Shown here in pieces: positions 20,310 through 60,719 of a stretch of 64,000 bases of DNA. The DNA comes from Cystobasidiomycetes sp. EMM_F5 (taxonomy: Eukaryota). Each line of letters opens with the position of its first letter. Positions within the stretch are counted from its first letter, which is position 1. The stretch is taken from assembly GCA_051047955.1 (NCBI GenBank), contig JBPGPT010000010.1:310001-374000 (forward strand), in the 5' to 3' direction. The notes below the pieces were generated by a model, which saw only the letters and a program-made list of their open reading frames with translations, did not search any database and was not told where the DNA came from. A program made the translations under genes and the position numbers.

Positions 20310-23034
20310 TCATTTATAAGTCAGACATACCTCAATGAACGGGTGATGCAAGGCTTCATGAGCGGTGATGCGGCTGGTGCAATCGAGTCTGAGGCATTTC
20401 CTCATGAGATCTATTGCCTGGAAGAGCTGAGTGTCGGGCTGATACCAGATGCTGATGTCATTCTGACGGTACCAGTTGGGCAGCCGCATGGAGCTGCCAT
20501 GCTGTTCTTTCCAGTGCTCCCATGCGTGTGGCGGCGTATTTTCCATGAAAATGTTGGGGTTGAGTTGAAGCACTAAATCGTGAAGAGTAGAATACTGCCT
20601 CTCTTCGATGCTGGGCACGTTGGTCACAAATGTACGATCTACCACGGGACAGAGAGGATTATCAGCAGGCACGGGCGACCTCAATAGCTACACGTACTGT
20701 GCATAGCGGCACACTTCTCCATTTTTTTCTTGCCAAAAATGGCACCAATCTCCGCGAGAGCTTCTGTATCGTCGTTACTCTGGAAGAATGGGAAGCGACG
20801 TGTAAGGAAGCAGAGCATTGTAATTCCAACCGACCAGATATCGAGCGACATGGTCTGATCTGGGCACTTGAGCAATACTTCTGGAGCTCTAAAGCCTCTT
20901 GTTCCAGCCCTGTTGGCTCGGATAATGGGTCTCTTGTCGAGATCTGGCTTCATGACGCCGATTGCTCGGCCTGGCGTGAGCTTGGTGACTGGTTCCCATC
21001 GCTCAGAGAATGGATCCTTTTCGTGTCTTTCTGTGAGAATCTTGCGCTCGCGAGGTGACGGTATCCATGGCCTCAGCGGACGACCGTTCAAGCCGGCTGG
21101 ACCTGATTCCACATCCTTCTCATCATATCCAAGTTCTGCAAATTCGCGACGGGTTGCGTCATTCTGCGCTAGTACGTCAATGGGGCCAATTTCTGGATCG
21201 ATTTTGGCGCCGTGTGTGCACGCTCGATATTCATCAGGCGAGAAGACGCGGTCCCCATCGGCTGCGGCTGCGGGCTTCCATAATTGCGGATAGGTATGCA
21301 AGCACTTTGCGTGCCATTCTGTCGGACTCAGTCGCTGCGCCAATCCAAAATCACATAGCGTTCCTTCGAGCGTTGTGGTGTTGAACAAAAAGTTGGCAGG
21401 CTTTACGTCCCGATGCATTATACCTAGGGAATGGCAATCTGCAAGAGCGGAGAAGAGACACTTGAAGTAATGCTTCATGTGGGGCAGGGACAATGTGCGA
21501 TAGTATTGCCTAAAGTCTTGGTGTTTCGAGTATGGCATGACTGCCAAGACCTGATCTTCATGTCGGATAGCCGATATGAGGTAAGCAGTGTTTCGAGCAT
21601 TTCGGAGATCTGCTAGCAGCTCCAGTTCGTTCTGAATACGCTGCGGCGAGCTAGTCACGTAGATGCGCTTAAGTGCGACATATACCGGCGATCCGCCTTG
21701 ACTTTTGTCGAGACTTTTGACATCCGCTCGCCGTTTCAGCTCTTTGCGAGCCATGACGAGCGCACTGTAAGGCGTATATCTCACTTTACCACGTCCGGAG
21801 CTCATAGATGTAGCCGCCGTGGATGTCGAGCCGGTTGATGACGATGCAGATGAGAAAGACAGGCTAGACTCGACATCCTGCGATGTTGTTTCCCGAAGCT
21901 TTGCCAGCTTGTGATACTTTCTAGTATCCGCGCCAATACTGTTGCGGAGGTCCATGATGGGCGGATCGTGTTGAGGATACCATTGCGCATTGTCGTGGAA
22001 CGGAAATTTACAATCAATGGCTTTGTAAACGGAAGAAAATGTGCCTAGCCGTATTTGAAGTCAAATTACTTGGGCATTCGCCATGTACTGCGTGCGAACT
22101 CACCTTCACCCAGACGATCCACAATCTTGTATCTCTTGCTTATCGGAATTTCATCCTCCAATTCCATGATTTCGTACTGGACAGCATCCTTTTCTTCCTG
22201 TGTGCGTTGATCCTCTGAAGACGGCTCTTCGACGAGCTGTGATGATTCATACTCTTCGTTATCCAGTCCGTCTTCACTCATCCTTGACTTGTCGCCAATG
22301 TCGTCGACTTCGTGATTCATTTGGCGGGGGAAGACTTGTAGAGGCACAAGTGTACCGTCTCTCTCGATAAGACAGGGGGAATAGGCAGCAGGATCCTCGA
22401 CTCGCTCCCAGGGCGATCTATGAAAGGTCTGCTTGACATCTAGGCCGTCTCGGGAGTAAGCTTCGAAGTTATGAATGGTCTGCTCTGCTGTGAGACGAAT
22501 AGTGTACAGTGGTGTAAGCGGACGACCCGGTTTGTCGTAGATTGGCAGCCAGAGGTAGGTTTGCTCGCAGAACCGAACGTCATAAATTTCGCCAATCTTG
22601 ACTTGGTCAAATGGGATAAAGCTGGGGTCGTAATGTTCTGCGCGGCGTTCTCCGTCCTCGTCTACATCATCGTCCTCGACATCGGGAGACTCATCACCGT
22701 CATCCTCTTCGTGAGATCCAGCTTGTGACTGCGAAGCGCGTGCAGCTTGTCGAGTTACGCGCTTCTCCACTTGCGTCTGAGTCTGTTTACCATTGCCGCC
22801 ACCTGCAGCCGTTCGACGTGTCTTTTTGGACGCTGAGGTCACCGCAGAGCCAGTCTGCGACAGAGACCCAACAGAAACTCCATCTTGACCGTTTCCAAGA
22901 CTTTGCTCAGACAGGGCAGCCCGATATCGCGTTATCCTCCGCGCTGAGCCTTGGTCGGTATTCGGATTGTTTACGCGTTCGGCTTCCGGTGAGTCGCCGT
23001 CTGGCCTGGACGTTGCTCTGGTGGACGGGGGCAT
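20310..23034 (-). CDS. CDC7: Cdc7/Hsk1 Ser/Thr kinase (DDK catalytic subunit) with a long N-terminal extension
   Basis: YKIVDRLGEG-TFSSVYKAID (spliced), VALKRIYVTSSPQRIQNELELL, HRDVKPANFL, DFGLAQ, RANRAGTRGFRAPEVLLKC, RITAHEALHHPF. The exact last exon is uncertain. Confidence 0.95.
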
Positions 23035-23374
23035 GGTGGGTGCTATGAATGAGCTGTGAGAATGTGGACCTTATCACAAGATGGGCATTTGCGACTTGGA
23101 GATTTGGAGCAAGTTGAGCTCCGAAATCGTCTGGAATTCGGCCAAGTTGAAAGAGCTGATCGTGGAACAACAGCTGGCTCGGGATGAGCTAAAGACAACA
23201 GTACCTCGGATCCAAGCTGCAGAATGGAACATCATGACACTCTGATTTGCTCTTGTATGCCAATCTGACCCAAACTGCTGATTTCCACGGAATTGGCCTC
23301 GAAAGCTCCGTTTGAACCGGTCGTCTACCGGCTTGATATCAATAAAGGCGAGAGCGTTGCGCCTGCTTGCAAAC

Positions 23375-26300
23375 ATGAACATGCTACTGGACGCAGAACT
23401 AGCGTAAGACTCGAGACTGCCTCTCACTCTGTCCCCGTCTCCCAATTTGACTGACATTCATCCGGTAATTTGTAAACATCCCCAGCAATCTCATCGAAGC
23501 CAGAATTGCACATGCAGACACGCACGGCCTCGGAAGTCCAGCCAGACGTTCAGCAACGCCTTCAGTGCGGCGAGCTGGGTCCGTAGCGAGCAGCGTTGCG
23601 TCGCCATCAAACAATCACGATAGTGCGGCAGCTTCAGCGGCATCGACAGCAGCGGCAGTAGCGCTGGGAGAAGCATGGAGAAGCATATCTGTGCAAGCTA
23701 CGTCGAGGGAAAGGAGCAGAAGCCGAAGTCATGTCACCTCGTCTACTGCTTCTGGAAACGGCTATGTTAATCCCGAACACCAAGCTGCCCTCTCCGCCGC
23801 GATTGCAGCTGTTCAAGCGGAACGTCAGGCTTCGGTGGCAGCGTCGCAGCAGAGCACTGCAGCTGATTCGCAGCCTAGCTCCCTCAATATCGAGAATGAC
23901 TCCGCTCTAGAGTCTCAAAGGAGGCAGGCTTCACCGTCGGCTTCGGTGTCATATATTACTACAGCAGAACTCGAGTCGAGACATGAGGCAGAGACTGCTG
24001 ACCAAGATGCTACGCCAACGGCAGAATCAGCGGAGTCAAGCATTACGCACAGACCCGTCCAACGGCCAACGGAGGTTGCCACTACTTCCACAAACGCAAC
24101 AATAACAACTCCTCTGTATGGATACGAAACTAGTCGGGCAGCGCCCATCAATGACGGGACTACAGCTTTAAATTCAGCTCAAGCGCATCAAATCAGTCAA
24201 GCACCCCCTTCGCAGGCTAGCCAAGCGCAACAGCAAATTATTAGCATATCTGATTCTTCAGATGATGAAGACAGCAGCGGCAACACGGCTTCCAATCGGA
24301 TAGCTCAAAATTTGATTAGTCCAGCTCGGCCTGCATCTTCCGGAGTAGCGACTCCGCCTATCCAGCTTCGCCAAGGGCAGATACATCGGCTCGAAGCGTC
24401 CTTCGTCACCAAGGCTCGAAAGGCTATCGCACATAGTCGCAAGCCACCGTCTGACGACACGGAGTCCACGACCAAAGTCGCCAGATCGTCTTCGGGCGGA
24501 CCGACACCATCGGCTGACATACTCATATCATGCAGAGATCCGAAATGCGCAGTCAAGATCAGTGCATCTTACCAGTACGTAGGTCCTGGAAGTGCAGAAT
24601 CGGCTAGCGCTCCAGCAGGAGAAGGCTGGAAGATCACCAGAATAATGCTAGATCATCTGGAGTTTTGTGATCCTAGAAGGGCGGAGCGACCTTCGGAAGC
24701 ATATCATGCTGCTTCTTATGATTATTCACAACTTTCGGCCACGAATGCCGTCTCTGAACCGAGTCGAAATCTTCCGCCGATGCGCATAAGCAACACGGAG
24801 GGTAGTATGCCTATACCGCCTGTGCCGAACACACGTCTAGATGCAGACGATGCCATGGACACAGATGATCCACCTTTCGGGCTCCGTATGCCTGGATCAG
24901 AACGACGTCCTATTCTAGACGAGAGCAACTCAAAATCTCGCGATAAGGGGAAAGAACGGGCCGTCTCCCCACAAGAAGAGACGTCTCACTCTAATACCGC
25001 TGTGCCTTCTCGCAAAGGCAAAGAGCGAGCTGCGACATTGTCACCGGCCGTTCAGCCCATCGCCAAGCGTGCCCAATATTTCACCGATGTAAGCTGCCTC
25101 TTATCAGCACTATAATGATACTATCCGCTGCAACTGGCTAAGTCATAATATCCTAGTTCGACTTGCTGCAAGCGACATCTGCGGCTTTACTGCGGGATCC
25201 GCAAATCCTGCTAACGTCTACCGAGAATTCGAAACGTGACGGCGAAGCGATTCGAATCTTCAGGATACAATGTCCCAACGCAGAGGATGAGGATATCGAA
25301 TGCAAAGCTAGAGTCCAGGCAGAACGGCCAAGAGGGTCTGGCGTGACAGCTGGTAATGGCGATATGGCGCGTCCCTGGACAGTGACACAAGTCATGCGCA
25401 CTCACGATCCTGAGTGTGATCAGCTGGAGAGTGCTCATCAAGCGAGTTTGGCTGCTGTCACGGCAGACGACACTATGCACAGTGTGATGGAATCTACATT
25501 AGACTACTCGAACATGTCTGAAGAGGAGGCTTATCGCCAAGCTGTCGCCGCAAGTATTTCGCTTGCTATTGAGAGTGGGCAACAAGCATCTACGTCATCG
25601 TCGTCGGAACAATGGACAACAACGGCTGACCTTTCAAATGCGACAATGCCACTACATCCGGAGTCTCTCGGCCAGCCTGTACTCGCGGCGGATCGTGTTG
25701 AACCTGCAGAGGCCGTGGGCCAGCAAGCACAGGCAGTAGAGCCAGTGGTGAGGGTAGTAGACGTTGATACTGCACAACCAGGACCTGCCTTCTCACTCAC
25801 TTCGAAACAGCATCAAACGAAGGTGGGCCTATGCTTTTACTTTGGTTTTGCTTTTCTGACGCTTCAGCAACACCTAGGATGCGCTTGTCGAGTATGCGGC
25901 TGAAGCCCTGCGTATGCAGTCTGCTGACCTTCGCGAGGAATACGAAGGACAGGACGAGCAAGAGACTCTGTTGCTCAAGTGCTCGTACTGCATTGCCGCG
26001 AAAGCCCTGGGTGATCGCGGTTGGGGCATTGGCGCTCATGTTATGGCAAAGCGGGACGGTATCGGCTGGTAAGTCTCGCTGGCCGACTCGGCTGCGACTA
26101 TGCTGAACCCTCAGTAAAGGTCGGTTTCGAGGACTCACAAAAAGCATCACAAGACATGCAAGCACCCTCATTTACTAGGAGCAGATCCATACCATACCGA
26201 CACTAGTGTGTCTGATCATGCGTCAGCTGCACCCAGGCGGGAATTAGTGACGCCCGTGCTGAGTGTTGGGACAGAAGTTGCTGCGCTCGGCGACACCGCT

Positions 26301-29158
26301 ATATTGGCGAACACCCTCGCGGCACCGAGTTCTACTCAGGACAGCACAACGAGTCAGGATGTGATTGAAGCGACCCCTGACCCGCCTGTCCAGTCTAGTA
26401 CATCCTATGGCACTGGAACGACAGCGCCTGCTTCGACCAGCACGGGTTCACTGAAGCCGTCTCTTGGTGCGATGTCTTCGTCAGACAGCGATAGCCTCCC
26501 GCCAGTAAGCCGGCTCAGCAGACCGACGCACAATGCTAGTCCGAGGCGCTCCCGCTCGCCCACGAAGCCGCTTGTACCTCTTGAAACTGGTGCATACCCT
26601 CGTGCGCCGTCTATCGGTGCCAGTTTCGAGACCCTTCCGAGTTTTCTGGCAGCCATTGACGCACACTCTAGCCAAGCAAATCCAGAAGCAATTCTTACGA
26701 TGGGCAAGGGCGATGCTGACAAATTCCGCAAATACTGCACATGGCCGACTTGTACTTACTCCTTTACGTGCGAACAGGATTCTGGCGAATTCGAGGTCAC
26801 TGAGGTATGTGCTGTTCATGCACATAGAAAAAGTGTCTGAAAAGTATCTGACGTAATGAATTTGTTATAGGTCCAGCCAGAGCACTGCGTAGAGTGTATG
26901 CAAGCTGGTTCATCTGTAAGTCCAGAAACTGTTACAAGCCTGCCCCGAAAGCTAAAGATAAGACTACAGATCCATATCCGTACTCCGCCGATCTCAGCAC
27001 CCAATACGCGGACGGGCGCATTCAGCTTGTCGACCAATGTGAGCAGGCATTCGCGCGTGAACAGCCCTCGATCGCAACAGGCTCCTACAAGCCAGAACTC
27101 GTCGGGCACATTAGCCCAGAATGTATTCCCACCAGTCCCAAGTGCTTCTGCTAGTCAACCAAACCAAGCGGATAGGACAAGTCGAACCGAGAAATCCCGA
27201 CGAAGTACTCCACGCGTATCCACACTCTTTAATGCACCTCGTGTGGGAAGTGTCTTTGACGCTGCTGACGAGCTAGAAAGGGCCATCAAGGCCTACTCCA
27301 TCAGCGTTCATCCGTTGGGTCGCATAACGGCCTCGCATGATGCCACAGGATGGACCTGGAGTTGTAAAACCTCGGACTGTCGATTCTCCTTTCACGCTGC
27401 CTACCTTAGCGTCATCGAAGGCTCAGTTCGCGTTGATCTTGTGAGTCGCTCAGAGCTTTGAGAGATATTGCAACCAGATTCTGAGGGTCAACTAGACGCA
27501 CCCACATCACGATCGGCGTTGTCTCGACAAAAAGCCGTCTGAGGACGCGCCCAAGGTCGGCAATCTCTTCGACGATCTCGAAGCATTGCAGCAGAGAATG
27601 TTCGAACATACGGAAAGGGTCAACCCCGGCTCTTCAGCGGGCTTAAGAGTCACAAACACCAACGAACGACAACGCATAGCCTGTTCGAGCCGAGAATCCG
27701 GATGTCAATATGGAGTCACTGCAGAGCCTCAGCTGTCTGGAGTCCAGATGGGCGGACTGAAAATTGTAAAGGTAAGAATCCTCTCGTCGTGCCAGAACTG
27801 AAGCTTGCTAAGCCCCTTGCAGGCGCTTCTAGTGCATAGTGATGCATGCAGACAATTTTACTCTATGATATATCTAAGAAATGTAAGATCGCAATAACAC
27901 TTTGTCAAACTTTTCGCTGATGCACGATGGCACGGCAGGCGGAAGTTCTCAGACCCAGCGGATCAGCCTCCGCAGAAGCTTTCCTACCGCCAAATTTAGT
28001 CGCATCTCGCGAGGCTCTCGCAACTCATCGTATGAAGCCACAGCAGACACATGCTCCCCTCACCGGCAGCAGGTTTGACACGGATGAGGACTTCAAAGCT
28101 GCTGTGACGCAGCACTCTGAATCAGTCAATTGCGGCAGCTCTCTCAACTGGAAGAAAACAGCTACCTACATACGATGCGAATGCAAGAATTATCATGCTG
28201 GATGTCGGTACGAATTCCACGCTGCATACTACATCGACAAGGACTTGGGCAATGTGAGACGGCTTTCCGTCACCGATGTAAGCTACCTTCTGCTGGGAAT
28301 ATCATACAGCTGACCGATTCCTCGTTTGCTCGGCAGGCTGTTATATCTCACAGCACCAAATGCGAACAGGAACTGATGATTTCCGGCAAAAAGAAGATGT
28401 CGTCACGTCCCGATGAACGTCGCCGGCTGCGCACACGATCATCAGCAGCTGCTTTCGGCACATCAGCATCGGACGCGGATGCGAGCAATGCGGATGTTGC
28501 ACCCGAAGCAGCGCCACAACCGCCTCGCAAGAAGCACAAACCGAATTCAGCATCGAAATCGAAAGTCGCTGCGAAGGCTCCTGCATCAGGATCCTCTGGC
28601 ACACCCATTTCCATTCCAAAACCACCTAGTGCTAGACCAGCCGCTTCTGCAGGGAACGGAGATGATTCTGACAGTCCTGTCGTAGAGGTCAAGGCGGAAT
28701 CGTCACCTCTGCGATCCTTACGTGGTTCGGTCGATCCCAGTAACTATGGCGAGCCGCTGGACACCCACCGGGATATACCTGCTGCACCAGTCGCTATACT
28801 CATGTCTCTTGGTTACCGGACGATTAAGGATCTATTCAATGCCGGGATTGAACAGGACGATTGGTATCCGCTCATGGATACGTTGGGTCGAGCTGCGCTC
28901 GAGTATCCGGCAGGTCTGCCCACGCATGTCGGTCCCTTCGACGTTGTGCAGCGCTTCCTGCAGCACCGTAAGCGATACATTTCGGCATACAATACTTTGT
29001 CTCATCTAACTTTTGACCAGGTCGAGCGAATGCAGCGATCAGCAAAGAAGGCATTCAAGCTGCGGAGGAGCCGCAGTGGTGGAATAGCTCATGATGCCTT
29101 TCAGGATACTATTGAGATGGGGAGCAATTTCTTGGGCGATGGTCCGATTGGACTCTGA
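23375..29158 (+). CDS. Large (~1,746 aa) 10-exon protein with seven Mutator-DBD/WRKY-GCM1-like C2HC zinc-finger repeats, a UIM and a SIM-like motif
   Basis: Exons 23375-23403, 23486-25088, 25157-25822, 25878-26068, 26120-26804, 26871-27440, 27496-27771, 27823-27882, 27939-28277 and 28337-29158 join in frame. The repeats show G-x-x-F + amphipathic helix + C-x4-9-C ... W/F/L-x-V/I ... H-x3-C. Confidence 0.75.
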
Positions 29159-29432
29159 ATGCAGTATGAGGGACTGGGGACAGTAAATGATCTGATGAGT
29201 GTGGCAGATCAAGGTATAGGGGATAGTATGGCAGATAATTTCGCAAGCCTATATGCTGCATATGCATATTCTACGCCACTTTGAAGTTGTTTTGAGACAT
29301 ATCAGCTTTCCGGAGTTCCAGCGGACAACTTGACAGAGGAACAATGATGAGCTGAGAGTGTCAACACCAGCCGATACATGCGTGAGAGTCGGTTGCAAGG
29401 CATTGCAGATACCCGCAACAGCCTTTGAATCC

Positions 29433-30787
29433 ATGCAAGAATGGTGAATACCGTCAAGGCCTGCCGTGATTGGCAGCTTGCAGATATCTGACTCCCAGCC
29501 TACCACCTTACCAGTCTGCCTCTAACTACCTAGTGGAAGCGGTATCTCCTGCACACCCTGATGACATCTGGTGTCTCAAATATACCGCTGTTGGCGTGTT
29601 GACCGGCTCTGCGGACGGGTCTCTCAAATTATGGTAAGTAAAGCGTGATAGCAGCCGCATCTCCTTATAATGCTCAATAGGATCCAATTGCAGGAGTCCT
29701 TCGAATCCAGATGAACCCCGATGTGTGATGCAATCAGCAGACCGTAAAGGAAAACAACCGCTGGCAATAGTAGGCTTAGACGTCGAGCATAATACACAAT
29801 CACCTTCGTTCGCCATCTCTGCTGCTATCGACTCGGTCGTCTCGCGATGGTCCCTGCAAGACGATAATCTCGGAACGGAAGAAGCTATATGGAGGTTACC
29901 CAATTCGGCGCTCACACAACAGCCTGGTCAAGCCTGGTCTATTAGCATCCATCCTGATCCGTCAACTTCCATATTTGCGACAAGCGGTATCGGAGGACAA
30001 ACTCGAATACTCAGTGGCGCAATACAGAATTTCGGGGAAGAGAAACTGTCCATACCGTCGAAGAGCCAGTTCGCTACTTGTGTTTATAGTCCGAATGGGA
30101 AAGTTCTGGCGACGGCTACCAGCGATGGCAATGTCTATTTATACGATAGCGAGACTGGCCAGATGCTGACGTACTGGATTGGTGAGCTCGAGCAATTTCG
30201 ATACTTTCTACGAATGACCGCACTGAACAGTAATGCTGTATACAGCGCACTCTGGCAATGTACGGTGTCTAGCCTTCTCGCCAGACTCGTCATTGGTTAT
30301 TACAGGCGGAGACGACAAGCAGATCAACGTATTTGACGTACGCGGTGTGACGACGCAAGAGCGGCATTATTCCTCTCAGACAAATGGCTCTGCTGCATCA
30401 ATGCGCCAGAGGCATCGTGTGGCTCAGCAGGTCGCCAATCTGCAAGGTCATACAGGTTGGGTGCTCAGCCTTAGCTGTCGAAGCGACGGCAAGATGTTTG
30501 CCAGCTCGTCTTCTGATGGGTGAGCATAGTACTGGATAATTCGTGGCTGTTATGCTGACTTCCCAACTTACAGAACCATACGATTGTGGGACCTCACAAG
30601 ACCAGCTTCTTCGTGTATGGCGGTGTTGAGAGAACACGAAAACGATGTATGGGCACTAGATTGGGCAGCTATGTCTCCTTCGGCTCATGCTGTAGACGGC
30701 ATAGGCGGACATGGGCTGGGCGGAGGACGATTTGCCTCTGGCGGCAAGGGTGGGGAATTGAAATGGTGGCGTGGCACTACCGGGTAG
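29433..30787 (+). CDS. SKI8: WD40 protein Ski8/WDR61 (Rec14)
   Basis: N-terminal AHPDDIWCLKY...LTGSADGSLKLW resembles the first blade of WDR61. Further blades: YSPNGKVLATATSDGNVYLYD, AHSGNVRCLAFSPDS, GHTGWVLSL, EHENDVWALDW. The start codon is tentative. Confidence 0.8.
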
Positions 30788-30945
30788 AGAGATGTGCACG
30801 CAACACTCTGCCTTTCGCATGACTCTGTTCGGTCTTTCAGCAGTGTTTCTAGCGAGCATTACAATTTCGGTAATTTTCCTCTCACCCATGCTTGGAGAAT
30901 GTTACCCAACTACCTTTTGCATGCTTGCCAATTGTTTCGCACAAC

Positions 30946-31643
30946 ATGGAAATCGACAACGACGATGACTGGCTTGATGATCAAGTCAACGATGTCGCAG
31001 CCATGCAGCGCAACGGGCAGCAAGAGTGGGAGAAGCTGTCTGCAAAGTTCACCGACGTGAGCCTGCCGTACTTAGCATACGCCAGCGAAGCCCAGCCTGA
31101 ACGATGCTCCTTGCACGATGCAAGGCAGGCTACCGCGAAGGTATCGGAGCTGGACGCAACAGCACCATGCAGGCTGGGTTCGATGAGGGATACCGCCAGG
31201 CTGCACCGATAGGGAGAGAAGTCGGGCGGCTTCGCGGTATTGCTGCAAGCTTGCTCGTACACCTCACGAGCGGGAATGCATCTCAGCAGGCCAATAAAGC
31301 GCAATCTAATACCTCAACGTCGTCGAATTCATCGCAAACTTCTGCAAATGACATTGAATTGGCGCGAGATGTGGTGCGTCGGCTGGGCAAGCTGAAGCTG
31401 CAAGACATAGCTGGACGCGACGAGGAAGCAGAGAAGCATGCCCTAGAGCACGGTGCAGAAGTGCACCTTCCCGTAGCGGTGCAGGACAAACGAGATATGG
31501 AAAGTCTCGAAGACAGCATGAGTGCTTTGGGAAATCCACAGGGTCCTGGTCAACGCGCCAACGGCAAGGAGCAACTTGAAGACTGTCGAGCAGTCCTGCA
31601 ACAACTTCTGGAGCGGGCTGGGTTGGCCACGTTGCAGCCTTAA
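30946..31643 (+). CDS. YAE1: Yae1 protein (Yae1-Lto1 adaptor for Rli1 Fe-S maturation)
   Basis: Exon 1 reads MEIDNDDDWLD...EWEKLSAKFTD. After one intron comes the deca-GX3 signature AGYREGIGAGRNSTMQAGFDEGYRQAAPIGREVGRLRG. Confidence 0.88.
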
Positions 31644-31724
31644 TGCCATCCAGGACACCATCAATAGAAAAATCATTCCCTTGCTGGCAACAACAGACTG
31701 TACCCTAGCAACGCATGACTCATG

Positions 31725-33808
31725 CTAGACGGCATTTGACAACAAGGTCGTCTCCCTAGCGAGACCGATACCGCCGGCAAGGGCCAGTATCCGTGCCCAA
31801 GCTCGGATTACTGCTCGCCGATCACCTCGAGCGCTTCGAAGACTAGCGACAGCCGAGGCCAAGACGATAATGGCAACTGCATCTCTAGCAAGACTCCGAG
31901 CGCCGACGAGTAACGAGATGAGCGCTTGACCCATCAATGATGTCAGGGAGGTCCGTGCGTTTTGACCCATTCTCGTGCCTCGCCCGGTCGCATCGGGACT
32001 TCGGAAGCGCAAGACGACGAAGAGACGGCGAAAGAAGACGCGAAGGAGTTGCAGAACGGGTGAAGCGGCGATCCACGCGCTCAAACTACCTCCGAGCGAA
32101 GTTCCAGCTGCTTGCGCTTGAAGATCATTTTGTATGTTTTCCATTAGATGCAATCGTTCGTGCAGAGCCGTAAGAGACGTCTGAATACTGTCGAGTGCTC
32201 GTTCGAGTGTTCTCTGTTGCTGTTGCTGCTGAATGTTTAGCGAATTCTGCAATTGGGCATGCTGCATGTCATGCAACTGCTGAGAACGCGCAGAAGTAGG
32301 CGGTAGAAGAGTCCCGCTTGCCGTCACGAGTGGTATTTCAGCCGTACTGATGAGACCTGGCCCGCTCCTGCCGGCCAAGTGCGCGCTGCGAGGTACTTCA
32401 TCCGGGAATACGTGGCTTGCAGGATCGGCAGATGGTAAAGCAGAGGAAAAGCTGCGAACAGTAGATTCGCGTTCACGAGCTGACGGATGTATAGGAGGGA
32501 TGTCTGCGGGTAGCTGCGCTTGCACCGGGGCGGGATACTGTGCTGGATGCTGATAAGGCGATGGTCCGGTCAAACGCCTCGACACGTTTGCCAACTGTAG
32601 ACCATCTCCGGATCTTCCAGCTCCACCTGACAGCGTACGTTGTCGATGGTGCGTCCCAGAATGCCGTTGTATCCGTGCGTGATGTTCTCTGTCGTGCCTT
32701 TCGATCTGCTCTTCCTCTTCAGACTGTGTATACTGGTCATCCTCATCTTCCCCTTCCTCTGTCGAGTAGTCGTCGTCATCGTCACTCGTATCGTCATTAT
32801 AAACTTTACGTTCTTGTTGAAACTGCTGTTGCGGCTGATTTCGTCCGGAACTGCGACTGTGCCTTTTTGGCGTTTCATCGCCGCCATCTGCTGCGTCTAG
32901 ATCCGCATTTCTTCGCAGCGGCTGCATTTGATCCGGTAGAGCAGAGTGATATGATCTCCTACTTGGCGGCGGCGATGTACTCCTATGTGAGCTAGTCTCG
33001 CTCGCTTCTGTAAGTGTCCCCTCCTCTTCCACTCTGCCCTGCATGTTATTCGACGTCGGCGTCCTGTTTCCGCTCTTTCCTATAGAAGCCAGCTGACGGA
33101 GTGCATCTACAGCTTGAGGACGGTCTCTCAGAGTCCGCAAGACGCCGATGAGCGTCTCGACATAGGACTCTTGCGCTTCTTGGCGTGTAAGCTTCTCTCG
33201 CTTCTTCCATGCATCCCACTTTGCGCGACCAAGCATATCGAGCAGCCCGGGACGAGATGTCTTTACTGGTCCTTCGGTAGCTAAGAAGCGTAGTTGACAT
33301 ACTGATCAGAAGGGTACGCTTGGATGGGTAATGAGAGACGCCTACCTTGCTTGTACAAGCTATATAGCATTAGCTTCTCTTCGTACGAGGTGGGTAAAGG
33401 CCCGCTCTTCGGTAGCTTCTGAATGATATCCACCGCTGTAAGGAAGCGTGCTTCTGAGAGGGTGATTGCATCTTCAGGGCGTCGAAGATGGCTGCTGCGA
33501 CTACTGCTGGCTAAGCTTCGTGTAGAGGGCGGAGGAGGATACGATACATTTCTGGGTGTCGAGCCAGAAGTTGCGGCCATTGTGGAAGTCGATGTATCTG
33601 GAGGTGATTGACCGGATAGCTGCTGCGTGTAGATCTGCTGAGACTGCGAGCGTCTCGGGTGATGCTGCCCAGACGACCCTTGCCCGCTCGTTCCGATATG
33701 ACCAGACGATGTCGTACGCCGCTGTTGCGATGTCGTCGCCGCTGCCCCGACACCATCATTTGCATTTGCTGCAGCTGACGACGATAACGAGCTCGACGTG
33801 CTCGCCAT
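31725..33808 (-). CDS. Acyl-CoA-binding (ACBP) domain protein with coiled coil and C-terminal hydrophobic anchor (ACBD4/5- or Atg37-like architecture)
   Basis: ARFLTAVDIIQKLPKSG...EEKLMLYSLYKQ-ATEG...DMLGRAKWDAWKK...AQESYVETL is an ACBP fold split by one intron. Coiled coil LERALDSIQTSLTALHERL, then a hydrophobic C-terminus. Confidence 0.85.
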
Positions 33809-59503: not shown

Positions 59504-60719
59504 ATGGCTTTCCAGTCGCCGCCGACGCAGTACGGCGTACCTGCGGGGGATACCACGCATTCACTTGATGGAGCAGTATGGCCTCCCGTGTCCACGTCGT
59601 CTTACCCGTACGGCCTGGCCGCGTATACCAATTCGCAAGGCCAGACTCACCCGGATCTGCCGAGCGAACCTCCAGGTTACGATGGTACGCCGAGGCAACA
59701 TTATGGTGATGAAAGGTCACTGTACTGACTGATGTTCTTTCTCAGAATTCGAATTCTCGTTCCCCGAAGAATTGTCGCCGTCTATGTTCAGTTTACCGTT
59801 GATGTCCAGCTATCATGATAACGCCTCGTCCGTACCGCCAACGCCGACCTTCTCTGTGTTTGGAGGATTCAACAACGGTCTCTCGTCAGTCCCGGCCTCT
59901 CCTGTCCGGCCAGGCTTCCTGTCCACTTCCGCTTCACCTCTAGCATTGCCGACCAATCCTCAACAAGCTCAATCTCAATCCATTTCACACTCCGTTGTCA
60001 CCGCGCAGACGATAGTCAACAAGGAAAATGCATCTCGAGATACTCGGTTCGCTCAGAGGCTCTTTCAAGATGACGAACAGAATTCGCTCGATACATTCTT
60101 CTCGCAGCAATTGTACGTCCAGCCAGGAATGAGCGAATCGCCTGTCGAGAGGGAGCAGGCTACGTCTACGGAAACCAAGAGAAAGTCTGTTCATAGCAAG
60201 AATGCGAAAGGCTCGACTGCTAAAGTTGCCATCCAAGGTAGCAACGCCAAAGTCAACGATGGGGACAACGAGCCTACACTTCAGCCACCATCGAAGCGAG
60301 TCAAGACGATCGCTGCCAATGACAAAATCGGTGTCAAGGCTGAGGATGGTGCGTCCCTGTCGCCAAGCGATCAAGAACACGCACCGAAACGAGGAGGCAA
60401 GCGTTCCAATCACATTGCCTCAGAACAGCGACGACGGTCGACTATAAAGGACAATTACAAGGCGTTAGTCGATATACTACTAGCCGGAGAAGAGTCGAGC
60501 GGAATAACACTAGCCAACGCGGGAGAAGGCGATGACGCGCCAGGTGAAAGTAAGAAGAGTAAAGCCAAAGGTCGGGGACGAGGACGGAAAGGACAAGATG
60601 GAGCAGGTGCAACGAAGAGTGTCGTGCTCGATCGAGTAGCCGCGTATATTCGCTGGCTGGAGAGGGGCAACGAGGCATTACAGACGGAGATTGGACGACT
60701 GGAGGTTGCAAAGACCTAG
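59504..60719 (+). CDS. bHLH transcription factor (Ino4/Mlx-like basic region)
   Basis: KRSNHIASEQRRRSTIKDNYKALVDIL ... ATKSVVLDRVAAYIRWLERGNEALQTEIGRLE (H-x3-E-x3-R E-box-binding signature). One intron near 59685-59746. Confidence 0.85.

Follow-up and report, generated by a model that had tools for sequence, protein, structure and literature searches.

We examined a 64,000-nucleotide (nt) window of the genome of Cystobasidiomycetes sp. EMM_F5 (GenBank assembly GCA_051047955.1, contig JBPGPT010000010.1, positions 310,001 to 374,000 of the forward strand; coordinates below are those of the window) and, within it, a gene at 23375..29158 on the plus strand that encodes a tandem array of putative zinc-binding modules, here called the array gene. 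An initial annotation had spliced ten exons into one frame, and we reproduced this model exactly: the exons, which contain no stop and are separated by nine canonical GT-AG introns of 51-82 nt, form a single open frame of 1746 codons. The deposited counterpart is the hypothetical protein EMMF5_002785 of Cystobasidiomycetes sp. EMM_F5 (1671 amino acids, aa). The same annotation had placed seven units (R1 to R7) between low-complexity linkers, and we found the units where it had put them. Our best explanation, to which we give a probability of roughly 0.6 as a whole (host gene, origin of the repeats, set of zinc ligands and inferred mechanism together), is that the array gene is no mobile element but a single-locus gene of the host, a cystobasidiomycete yeast, and encodes a nuclear-type protein of 1700-1750 aa. 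Its features are listed here; P0005 is an orthologous protein fragment and L001 a metagenome locus, both described below.

23375..29158, plus strand: whole gene, ten exons, 1746 aa; the same as EMMF5_002785 except for five segments that the deposit omits
23375-23403, 23486-25088, 25157-25822, 25878-26068 and 26120-26804, plus strand: exons 1-5 of the ten-exon model
26871-27440, 27496-27771, 27823-27882, 27939-28277 and 28337-29158, plus strand: exons 6-10 of the same model
24471..24668, plus strand: R1, aa 339-404; C-x4-C, W-x-I-T-R and H-x3-C in that order; wholly in exon 2
25071..25417, plus strand: R2, aa 539-631; C-x9-C, W-x-V-T-Q and H-x3-C; intron 25089-25156 in its N-terminal part
25814..26159, plus strand: R3, aa 764-843; C-x2-C, W-x-V-S-R and H-x3-C; the most degenerate unit
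26613..26897, plus strand: R4, aa 995-1067; body 26613-26804, phase-0 intron 26805-26870, H-x3-C tail 26871-26897
27243..27522, plus strand: R5, aa 1183-1257; body 27243-27440, phase-0 intron 27441-27495, tail 27496-27522
27556..27849, plus strand: R6, aa 1269-1349; body 27556-27771, phase-0 intron 27772-27822, tail 27823-27849
28062..28363, plus strand: R7, aa 1402-1482; body 28062-28277, phase-0 intron 28278-28336, tail 28337-28363
28775..28967, plus strand: C-terminal domain, about aa 1620-1684; collinear in P0005 and L001
28968-29020, plus strand: probable tenth intron; window and L001 have its GTAAG donor at the equal codon, as P0005 is inferred to have

The cysteines of the protein are confined to the units: all 25 lie within R1 to R7, with exactly three each in R1, R2, R3, R5 and R6. 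The spacing of the first Cys pair varies, being C-x4-C in R1, R4 and R5, C-x6-C in R6 and R7, C-x9-C in R2 and C-x2-C in R3. The ending does not vary: the unusual H-x3-C spacing noted in the initial annotation closes every one of the seven units, and it recurs in two orthologues of R7 (L001 and P0005). The pattern C-x2-10-C-x12-50-H-x3-C occurs seven times in the protein; among 5000 shuffles, it was absent from 4790 and occurred once in 208 and twice in 2. The linkers consist to 46-61% of S, T, P, A, G and Q, with the 11-residue spacer between R5 and R6 as the exception (36%).

Four of the units are clearly homologous copies of one unit, as judged by their sequences. When each was searched with a profile built from the other three, all were recovered, with expectation values (E) of 6.5e-6 for R4, 2.4e-6 for R5, 2.3e-8 for R6 and 5e-14 for R7. 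Similarly, for five of the six pairs among R4-R7, the local alignment score was reached by none of 1000 shuffles (p 0.019 for the sixth pair). In all four, a phase-0 intron lies exactly four codons upstream of the ligand His, and the exon ends are alike at the DNA level. Because the intron is identical and the exon ends are alike, R4-R7 appear to have grown by tandem duplication of an exon-pair unit, and the common intron position bears out the internal amplification that had been suggested for this gene.

The sole relevant Pfam family in the array gene is PF03108 (DBD_Tnp_Mut). We found it in two of eight exon translations: those of R5, the strongest match among the units (E 3e-5, 24.0 bits, profile positions 5-59 of 67), and of R7 (E 0.0078). 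The whole deposited protein scored 34.3 bits over two stretches, above the curated cut-off of 25; taken singly, the units fell below it (24.0 bits for R5, 14.4-16.3 bits for R7), and R1-R4 and R6 gave no PF03108 match. The Pfam families AFT (PF08731), FAR1 (PF03101) and FLYWCH were not matched by the exons or by the whole protein (for AFT, at E<=10). These data support the proposed kinship of the units with the Mutator/WRKY-GCM1 world.

An AlphaFold2 model of R7, the best-conserved unit, is consistent with this assignment. Built from 13 sequences, it has a mean predicted local distance difference test (pLDDT) score of 77.3, with a core above 85, and consists of a helix, four strands and a second helix. 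The first helix (residues 15-29, pLDDT 85-94) lies ahead of the strands; the two Cys are placed at the hairpin of strands 2 and 3, and the His and last Cys where strand 4 ends and the last helix begins. Compared with 48,161 PDB representatives, the model matched the Aft2-DNA structure (4lmg_A) first, with a Z-score of 6.4 and a root-mean-square deviation of 3.1 over 72 residues. The C-terminal domain that follows R7 has no Pfam match; its nearest ESM clusters are nameless, and the DUF4332 cluster, at 0.83, was too weak to be used.

The array gene lies between two host genes, each about 300 bp away. The upstream neighbour is a divergent, minus-strand kinase gene whose best match is Cdc7 (E 5.6e-61). 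Downstream lies a gene for a WD40 protein, for which SKI8/WDR61 (E 1.6e-9) ranked second, after a WD40 kinase of weaker coverage. The array gene is thus intron-rich and placed between CDC7 and SKI8, as first described. The upstream interval is the following.

23071..23374, no strand: short divergent intergenic region shared with the CDC7-like gene; no terminal inverted repeat (TIR)

The distance of about 300 bp between the start of the array gene and the divergent CDC7-like gene suggests a shared bidirectional promoter. No transposase family (DDE or TnpA-like) was detected by Pfam in the exons of the gene or in the whole protein, and none in the 42 open reading frames (ORFs) scanned among the 132 of at least 110 aa in the window. 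The scanned ORFs encode housekeeping proteins: Fab1-like FYVE/Cpn60_TCP1, WDR75, 14-3-3, Rrp7, RRP5, Isy1, a CCT/TCP-1 chaperonin subunit and others. Amid such genes, an ORF at 59733-60716 has a weak match to the helix-loop-helix family PF00010 (E 2.3e-4). We also found no TIR, either in a repeat search of 22000-31000 or by blastn of the 700-bp flanks against each other; the best inverted matches were at chance level (E>=1.4). The earlier statement that the locus lacks a DDE domain and TIRs therefore holds in each of these searches.

Orthologues of the array protein were sought with the second EMM_F5 copy (P0002, described below) as the phmmer query against 1.84 billion representative proteins. 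Eight proteins were found at E<=0.001: two are those of EMM_F5, and six are short fragments from Logan/ENA assemblies, five of which correspond to R7 and one to R5. The six are 38-51% identical to the query and 36-55% identical to R7 itself, and they end at the common intron site. The orthologous fragments recognized are the following.

R7: P0003-P0006, P0008, P0009, P0012 and the metagenome locus L001
R5: P0007, P0010 and P0011

Because R5 and R7 have separate orthologues, the array probably existed before several lineages separated; R7 itself is conserved in four lineages or more. P0005 aligns collinearly (E 6e-23) with a stretch made up of R7, its H-x3-C tail (past an in-frame read-through of the intron), the basic linker and the C-terminal domain. 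The metagenome contig L001 begins within the R7 exon and continues with the intron, the H-x3-C tail and the C-terminal domain, and then with an SKI8-like gene, Yae1 and a minus-strand gene for an ACBP-domain protein, in the order and orientation seen in the window. This microsynteny with an uncultured relative spans four genes (28077-32219 in the window, 2-4338 in L001); the WD40 exons are 50-70% identical, the R7 units are about 43% identical, and the site and phase of the R7 intron are kept in L001 and in the fragments. Since gene order is retained at a distance at which R7 is only about 43% identical, and since the gene has introns, we conclude that the array gene is probably a fixed host gene. 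The conserved microsynteny with so divergent a relative supports the proposed domestication better than the sequence of the window had done by itself.

Two further searches, word-based and made among longer proteins, widened this picture little. With exon 10, only the two EMM_F5 proteins were found; with the R7 alignment (proteins of 703-2005 aa), the same two were found together with P0013. We judged the latter match spurious: P0013 is a 999-aa protein with bacterial-type domains, matched at E 6.7e-6 over 20% of the query. A candidate second metagenome locus, L002, was disregarded, as it shares a match of only 12 residues.

A number of results, given from here up to the comparison with known systems, weigh against our explanation or against parts of it. 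One is that a second sequence about 90% identical to the array gene lies elsewhere in the genome, as could be expected of mobile or recently duplicated sequence. This copy, which the initial annotation had not foreseen, is EMMF5_005946 (P0002), a protein of 970 aa encoded on another EMM_F5 contig; it aligns with the array protein over 969 residues, at 90.5% identity. Absent from it are the initial 230 residues, the first of the R1 Cys, R2 in full, the junction between R6 and R7, and the C-terminal domain. Its substitutions include W391R, W830R, W1038R, C1047Y, C1257R (a ligand) and C1425S, with the loss of three conserved Trp and three Cys. Substitutions are slightly rarer within the units (28 of 381 residues) than outside them (64 of 588). 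The base changes that we inferred from the protein differences alone show no clear bias of the kind expected from repeat-induced point mutation (39 transitions, 36 transversions, 4 that could be either and 13 multi-step changes). Given this truncation and the loss of ligand Cys and conserved Trp, P0002 is probably a duplicate in decay and not a member of an active family; it is also the one dispersed copy, itself degenerate, that our protein searches found.

The existence of this copy, together with the PF03108 homology, bears on the possibility that the array gene is the ORF of a non-autonomous ("hyper-parasitic") derivative of a Mutator-like element (MULE), which would carry DNA-binding repeats only and be moved in trans. 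There is a precedent: the Yarrowia Mutyl variants carry one ORF, which encodes 3-4 WRKY-GCM1 repeats but no transposase, and are presumably mobilised in trans (Babu et al. 2006, PMC1702500). We nevertheless hold such an origin to be very unlikely. The gene has nine or ten spliceosomal introns, lacks detectable TIRs and lies about 300 bp from CDC7 on one side and SKI8 on the other; its order with its neighbours is kept in a relative with a highly divergent R7; and P0002, the only other copy found, bears signs of decay in its truncation and in the loss of ligand Cys and conserved Trp.

A second point concerns the gene model. The exon joins are predictions from sequence, and the deposited ab initio model differs from ours at five places. 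Relative to the 1746-aa model, EMMF5_002785 lacks five segments (4, 21, 18, 19 and 13 aa) and shows no mismatches. The deposited introns lie at approximately 26069-26131, 26503-26565, 26916-26969, 27039-27095 and 27441-27534, and amount to three additional short in-frame introns within linkers and, for R3 and R5, to acceptors placed further downstream. With the last omitted segment R5 loses its H-x3-C tail, a feature kept in the other units and in the annotated paralogue; for this reason the deposited R5 acceptor is probably a wrong choice. The 3' end of our own model would change as well, as a tenth intron at 28968-29020 is likely: the peptides read through its donor are unrelated, and splicing ends the protein in a short acidic tail, in the window as in L001. 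If it is spliced, the stop ends at 29094 and the protein has 1707 aa.

These uncertainties raise the question of whether the array gene might be an artefact of gene prediction, in which two or more genes, or a pseudogene, have been fused by ab initio splicing. The EMM_F5 assembly is Illumina-only and was annotated ab initio by funannotate, with no RNA data and no sister genome reported (PMC12697161), and splice alternatives exist at six places (the five differences from the deposit and intron 28968-29020). Set against this, one frame stays open through ten exons joined by short canonical introns, without a stop; the R7 intron keeps its site and phase in L001 and the fragments; and R7 and the C-terminal domain are collinear in both P0005 and L001. 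We therefore regard a prediction artefact as highly improbable.

The N-terminal units present a greater difficulty. In profile searches with R4-R7, R1 and R2 reached only E 0.1-0.4 (for R1, 0.13-0.4), and R3 was unmatched; hhalign against a profile of R4-R7 and their orthologues gave E 0.13-0.2 (0.2 for R2), with only R2 in register. None of the three has the phase-0 intron shared by R4-R7. R1 has no intron and no clear G-x-x-F helix, and R3 is interrupted by introns 25823-25877 and 26069-26119, the second of which differs from the R4-R7 intron in place and phase. The AlphaFold2 model of R2 places a helix ahead of the strands, with low confidence (pLDDT 64.5) and under the guidance of the R4-R7 rows, and no WRKY-GCM1 chain was among its top 50 structural matches (VIA-align). 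By these tests, the view that R1-R3 share the fold of R4-R7 is not supported. The claim that the gene holds seven copies of one unit stands statistically for R4-R7, by the leave-one-out profiles and shuffles, and not for R1-R3.

It is conceivable, then, that R4-R7 alone are MULE-type modules and that R1-R3 are unrelated shorter CCHC zinc knuckles or bind no zinc, the protein being a four-module array with a different N-terminal half. The insignificant profile and hhalign scores, the lack of the shared intron and of a clear G-x-x-F helix, the want of orthologous fragments for R1-R3 and the weak R2 model all favour this alternative, and we take it seriously while considering it rather unlikely. 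Against it, R1-R3 have the ligand order and H-x3-C ending of R4-R7, and exactly three Cys each. Moreover, six of the 15 pairs that involve R1-R3 score at a shuffle p<=0.02, and hhalign sets R2 in register. The ESM features of R2 have as nearest neighbours the FAR1, MuDR and AFT clusters alone, at 0.84-0.86 (the AFT-containing cluster at 0.84), a level that makes them a lead only. The confinement of the Cys to the units, the sevenfold ligand pattern and these pair scores argue that R1-R3 are not random sequence; we favour the reading that the three are probable eroded or shortened relatives of the four certain modules. A separate observation concerns the DNA of R2: positions 25081-25099, at the junction of exon 2 and intron 2 in the upstream part of the unit, are identical at 18 of 19 nt to 28270-28288, at the junction of the R7 body and tail, and the match extends into the first bases of the intron. 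It may reflect a relic of an eighth unit, gene conversion or chance.

The assignment to family and fold has limits of its own. The PF03108 alignments end at profile position 59 of 67, so that the C-terminal ligand motif of the family is left unmatched, and at E<=0.01 the family was found in only two of 13 aligned modules and fragments. The structural match of R7 to Aft2 is tied with (within 1 Z of) unrelated alpha+beta folds; Foldseek of R7 against PDB gave nothing at E<=0.001, and its list is headed by AMPK/KA1-type alpha+beta domains, with Aft2 at rank 45 (E 0.3). A profile of R4-R7 and the fragments found no PDB sequence at E<=10.

Conservation, too, was seen for R5, R7 and the C-terminus alone. 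The searches returned no orthologue of full length; exon 3, the one with R2, had no match among 1909 candidates of 122-389 aa; and the phmmer search returned no orthologous fragment of R1, R3 or R4. The sequences that we recovered do not extend this conservation to R1-R4, R6 or the N-terminal third.

The charge of the modules is unlike that expected of independent DNA-binding units. Basic (K+R) and acidic (D+E) residues number 7/6 in R1, 11/15 in R2, 12/12 in R3, 4/12 in R4, 8/9 in R5, 8/9 in R6 and 11/10 in R7: the modules are not basic, acidic residues equal or outnumber basic ones in five of the seven, and the isoelectric point (pI) is as low as 4.3 in R4 and 4.9 in R2. Because the modules are neutral to acidic, seven independent DNA-binding units are not favoured. 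Basic character is found in the linkers, with a pI of 12.0 before R5, 10.2 before R7 and 9.7 after R7. These values would suit a protein whose modules are zinc-stabilised scaffolds for binding protein or RNA, that is, a disordered hub that owes its affinity for nucleic acids to the basic linkers. We think this improbable: the characterised WRKY, GCM1, Aft/Rcs1, Rbf1 and FLYWCH/mod(mdg4) domains all bind DNA in the account of PMC1702500, and R7 is conserved across lineages. A DNA-binding role for the competent modules remains our preferred explanation.

The kind of protein proposed here is already known, since Babu et al. 2006 describe 3-4 repeats in Mutyl ORFs and as many as five WRKY-GCM1-superfamily repeats in FLYWCH proteins. 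The statement in the initial annotation that such factors usually carry one or two copies was therefore an underestimate. The same source reports stand-alone, MULE-derived WRKY-GCM1 proteins in basidiomycetes, repeated transitions from transposase to factor in fungi, and the derivation of the Rcs1p/Aft2p clade of fungal transcription factors from MULE transposases (PMC1702500). A literature search brought up no paper evidently devoted to the array protein or to fungal arrays of DBD_Tnp_Mut, judging by the listings. What appears to be new is how large the array is (four certain modules, up to seven), together with its H-x3-C spacing, its C-terminal domain and its highly restricted occurrence.

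Among these systems, the Mutyl variants share with the array gene tandem MULE-type DNA-binding domains without a catalytic domain; they differ in being transposon-borne, whereas the array gene is intron-rich, syntenic and beside housekeeping genes, a distinction that rests on the published description of Mutyl. Aft1/Aft2 (Rcs1) and Rbf1 likewise represent transposase DNA-binding domains turned host factors, and Aft2 (4lmg) is the top structural match of R7; in contrast, the array protein has no AFT match and another ligand spacing, and these factors are not described as arrays in the part of the source at hand. FLYWCH1 and mod(mdg4) resemble the array protein in having tandem WRKY-GCM1-superfamily fingers within a host protein, but belong to a separate family, so that any functional likeness would be by analogy only. 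Human FLYWCH1, with its five FLYWCH fingers, is described as binding simple repeats and (peri)centromeres marked by H3K9me3 (PMC8373943). Members of the DBD_Tnp_Mut-type family have H-x-C as the C-terminal ligand pair and a helix ahead of the sheet (Babu et al. 2006, PMC1702500).

Compared with DBD_Tnp_Mut transposases, the array protein has in common the PF03108 match, a closely spaced N-terminal Cys pair and, in the R7 model, the helix before the sheet; unlike them, it ends its seven units and the L001 and P0005 orthologues of R7 in H-x3-C, has 4-7 copies of the module instead of one, and is encoded by a gene without a catalytic domain or TIR. FAR1/FHY3 are similar in being domesticated MULEs with a WRKY-GCM1-type N-terminal domain, and FAR1 clusters near R2 in ESM (again a lead only); the array protein differs in having no PF03101 match. 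FAR1 is a DNA-binding member of the WRKY-GCM1 superfamily, and FAR1/FHY3 retain the transposase core and a SWIM finger, with one DNA-binding domain.

We propose that R4-R7 arose by the tandem duplication described above; R1-R3 would be either copies of far greater age, now eroded, or a CCHC form of a second, shorter kind. As ligands we propose C, C and H-x3-C, the last pair, predicted to lie where strand 4 passes into the helix, replacing the H-x-C/H-x-H of known families. Each competent module might contact a short DNA motif through its beta-sheet, like other WRKY-GCM1 domains, while the basic linkers would contribute added non-specific affinity and the array as a whole avidity for clustered motifs; the C-terminal domain may serve to recruit partners or to oligomerise.

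A more ambitious form of this proposal is that R1 to R7 are without exception functional zinc modules of WRKY-GCM1 type and form a new H-x3-C sub-type, and that the protein is a multivalent reader of reiterated DNA. If so, it would exceed in length all other tandem arrays of Mutator-derived DNA-binding domains in fixed host genes, and would be a reader of centromeric, subtelomeric or transposon-derived repeats that is confined to a small cystobasidiomycete lineage, and a fungal counterpart of FLYWCH1 that recruits chromatin partners via its conserved C-terminal domain. Taken jointly (seven functional units, longest array, restriction to a small lineage, role as reader and C-terminal recruitment of chromatin partners), this is quite doubtful.

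The value of the finding is moderate, as events of this kind are already documented and the data do not point to a specific biological role. Transposase DNA-binding domains are a recurring origin of transcription and chromatin factors. The array gene would add a further step, in which a domesticated module was amplified together with its intron inside a gene, its zinc-ligand spacing was altered and the product was fixed at a syntenic locus, with one decaying duplicate to serve as a comparison. It may thus offer a compact test case for how multi-module arrays of the WRKY-GCM1 fold recognize DNA and for whether eroded modules retain a function.

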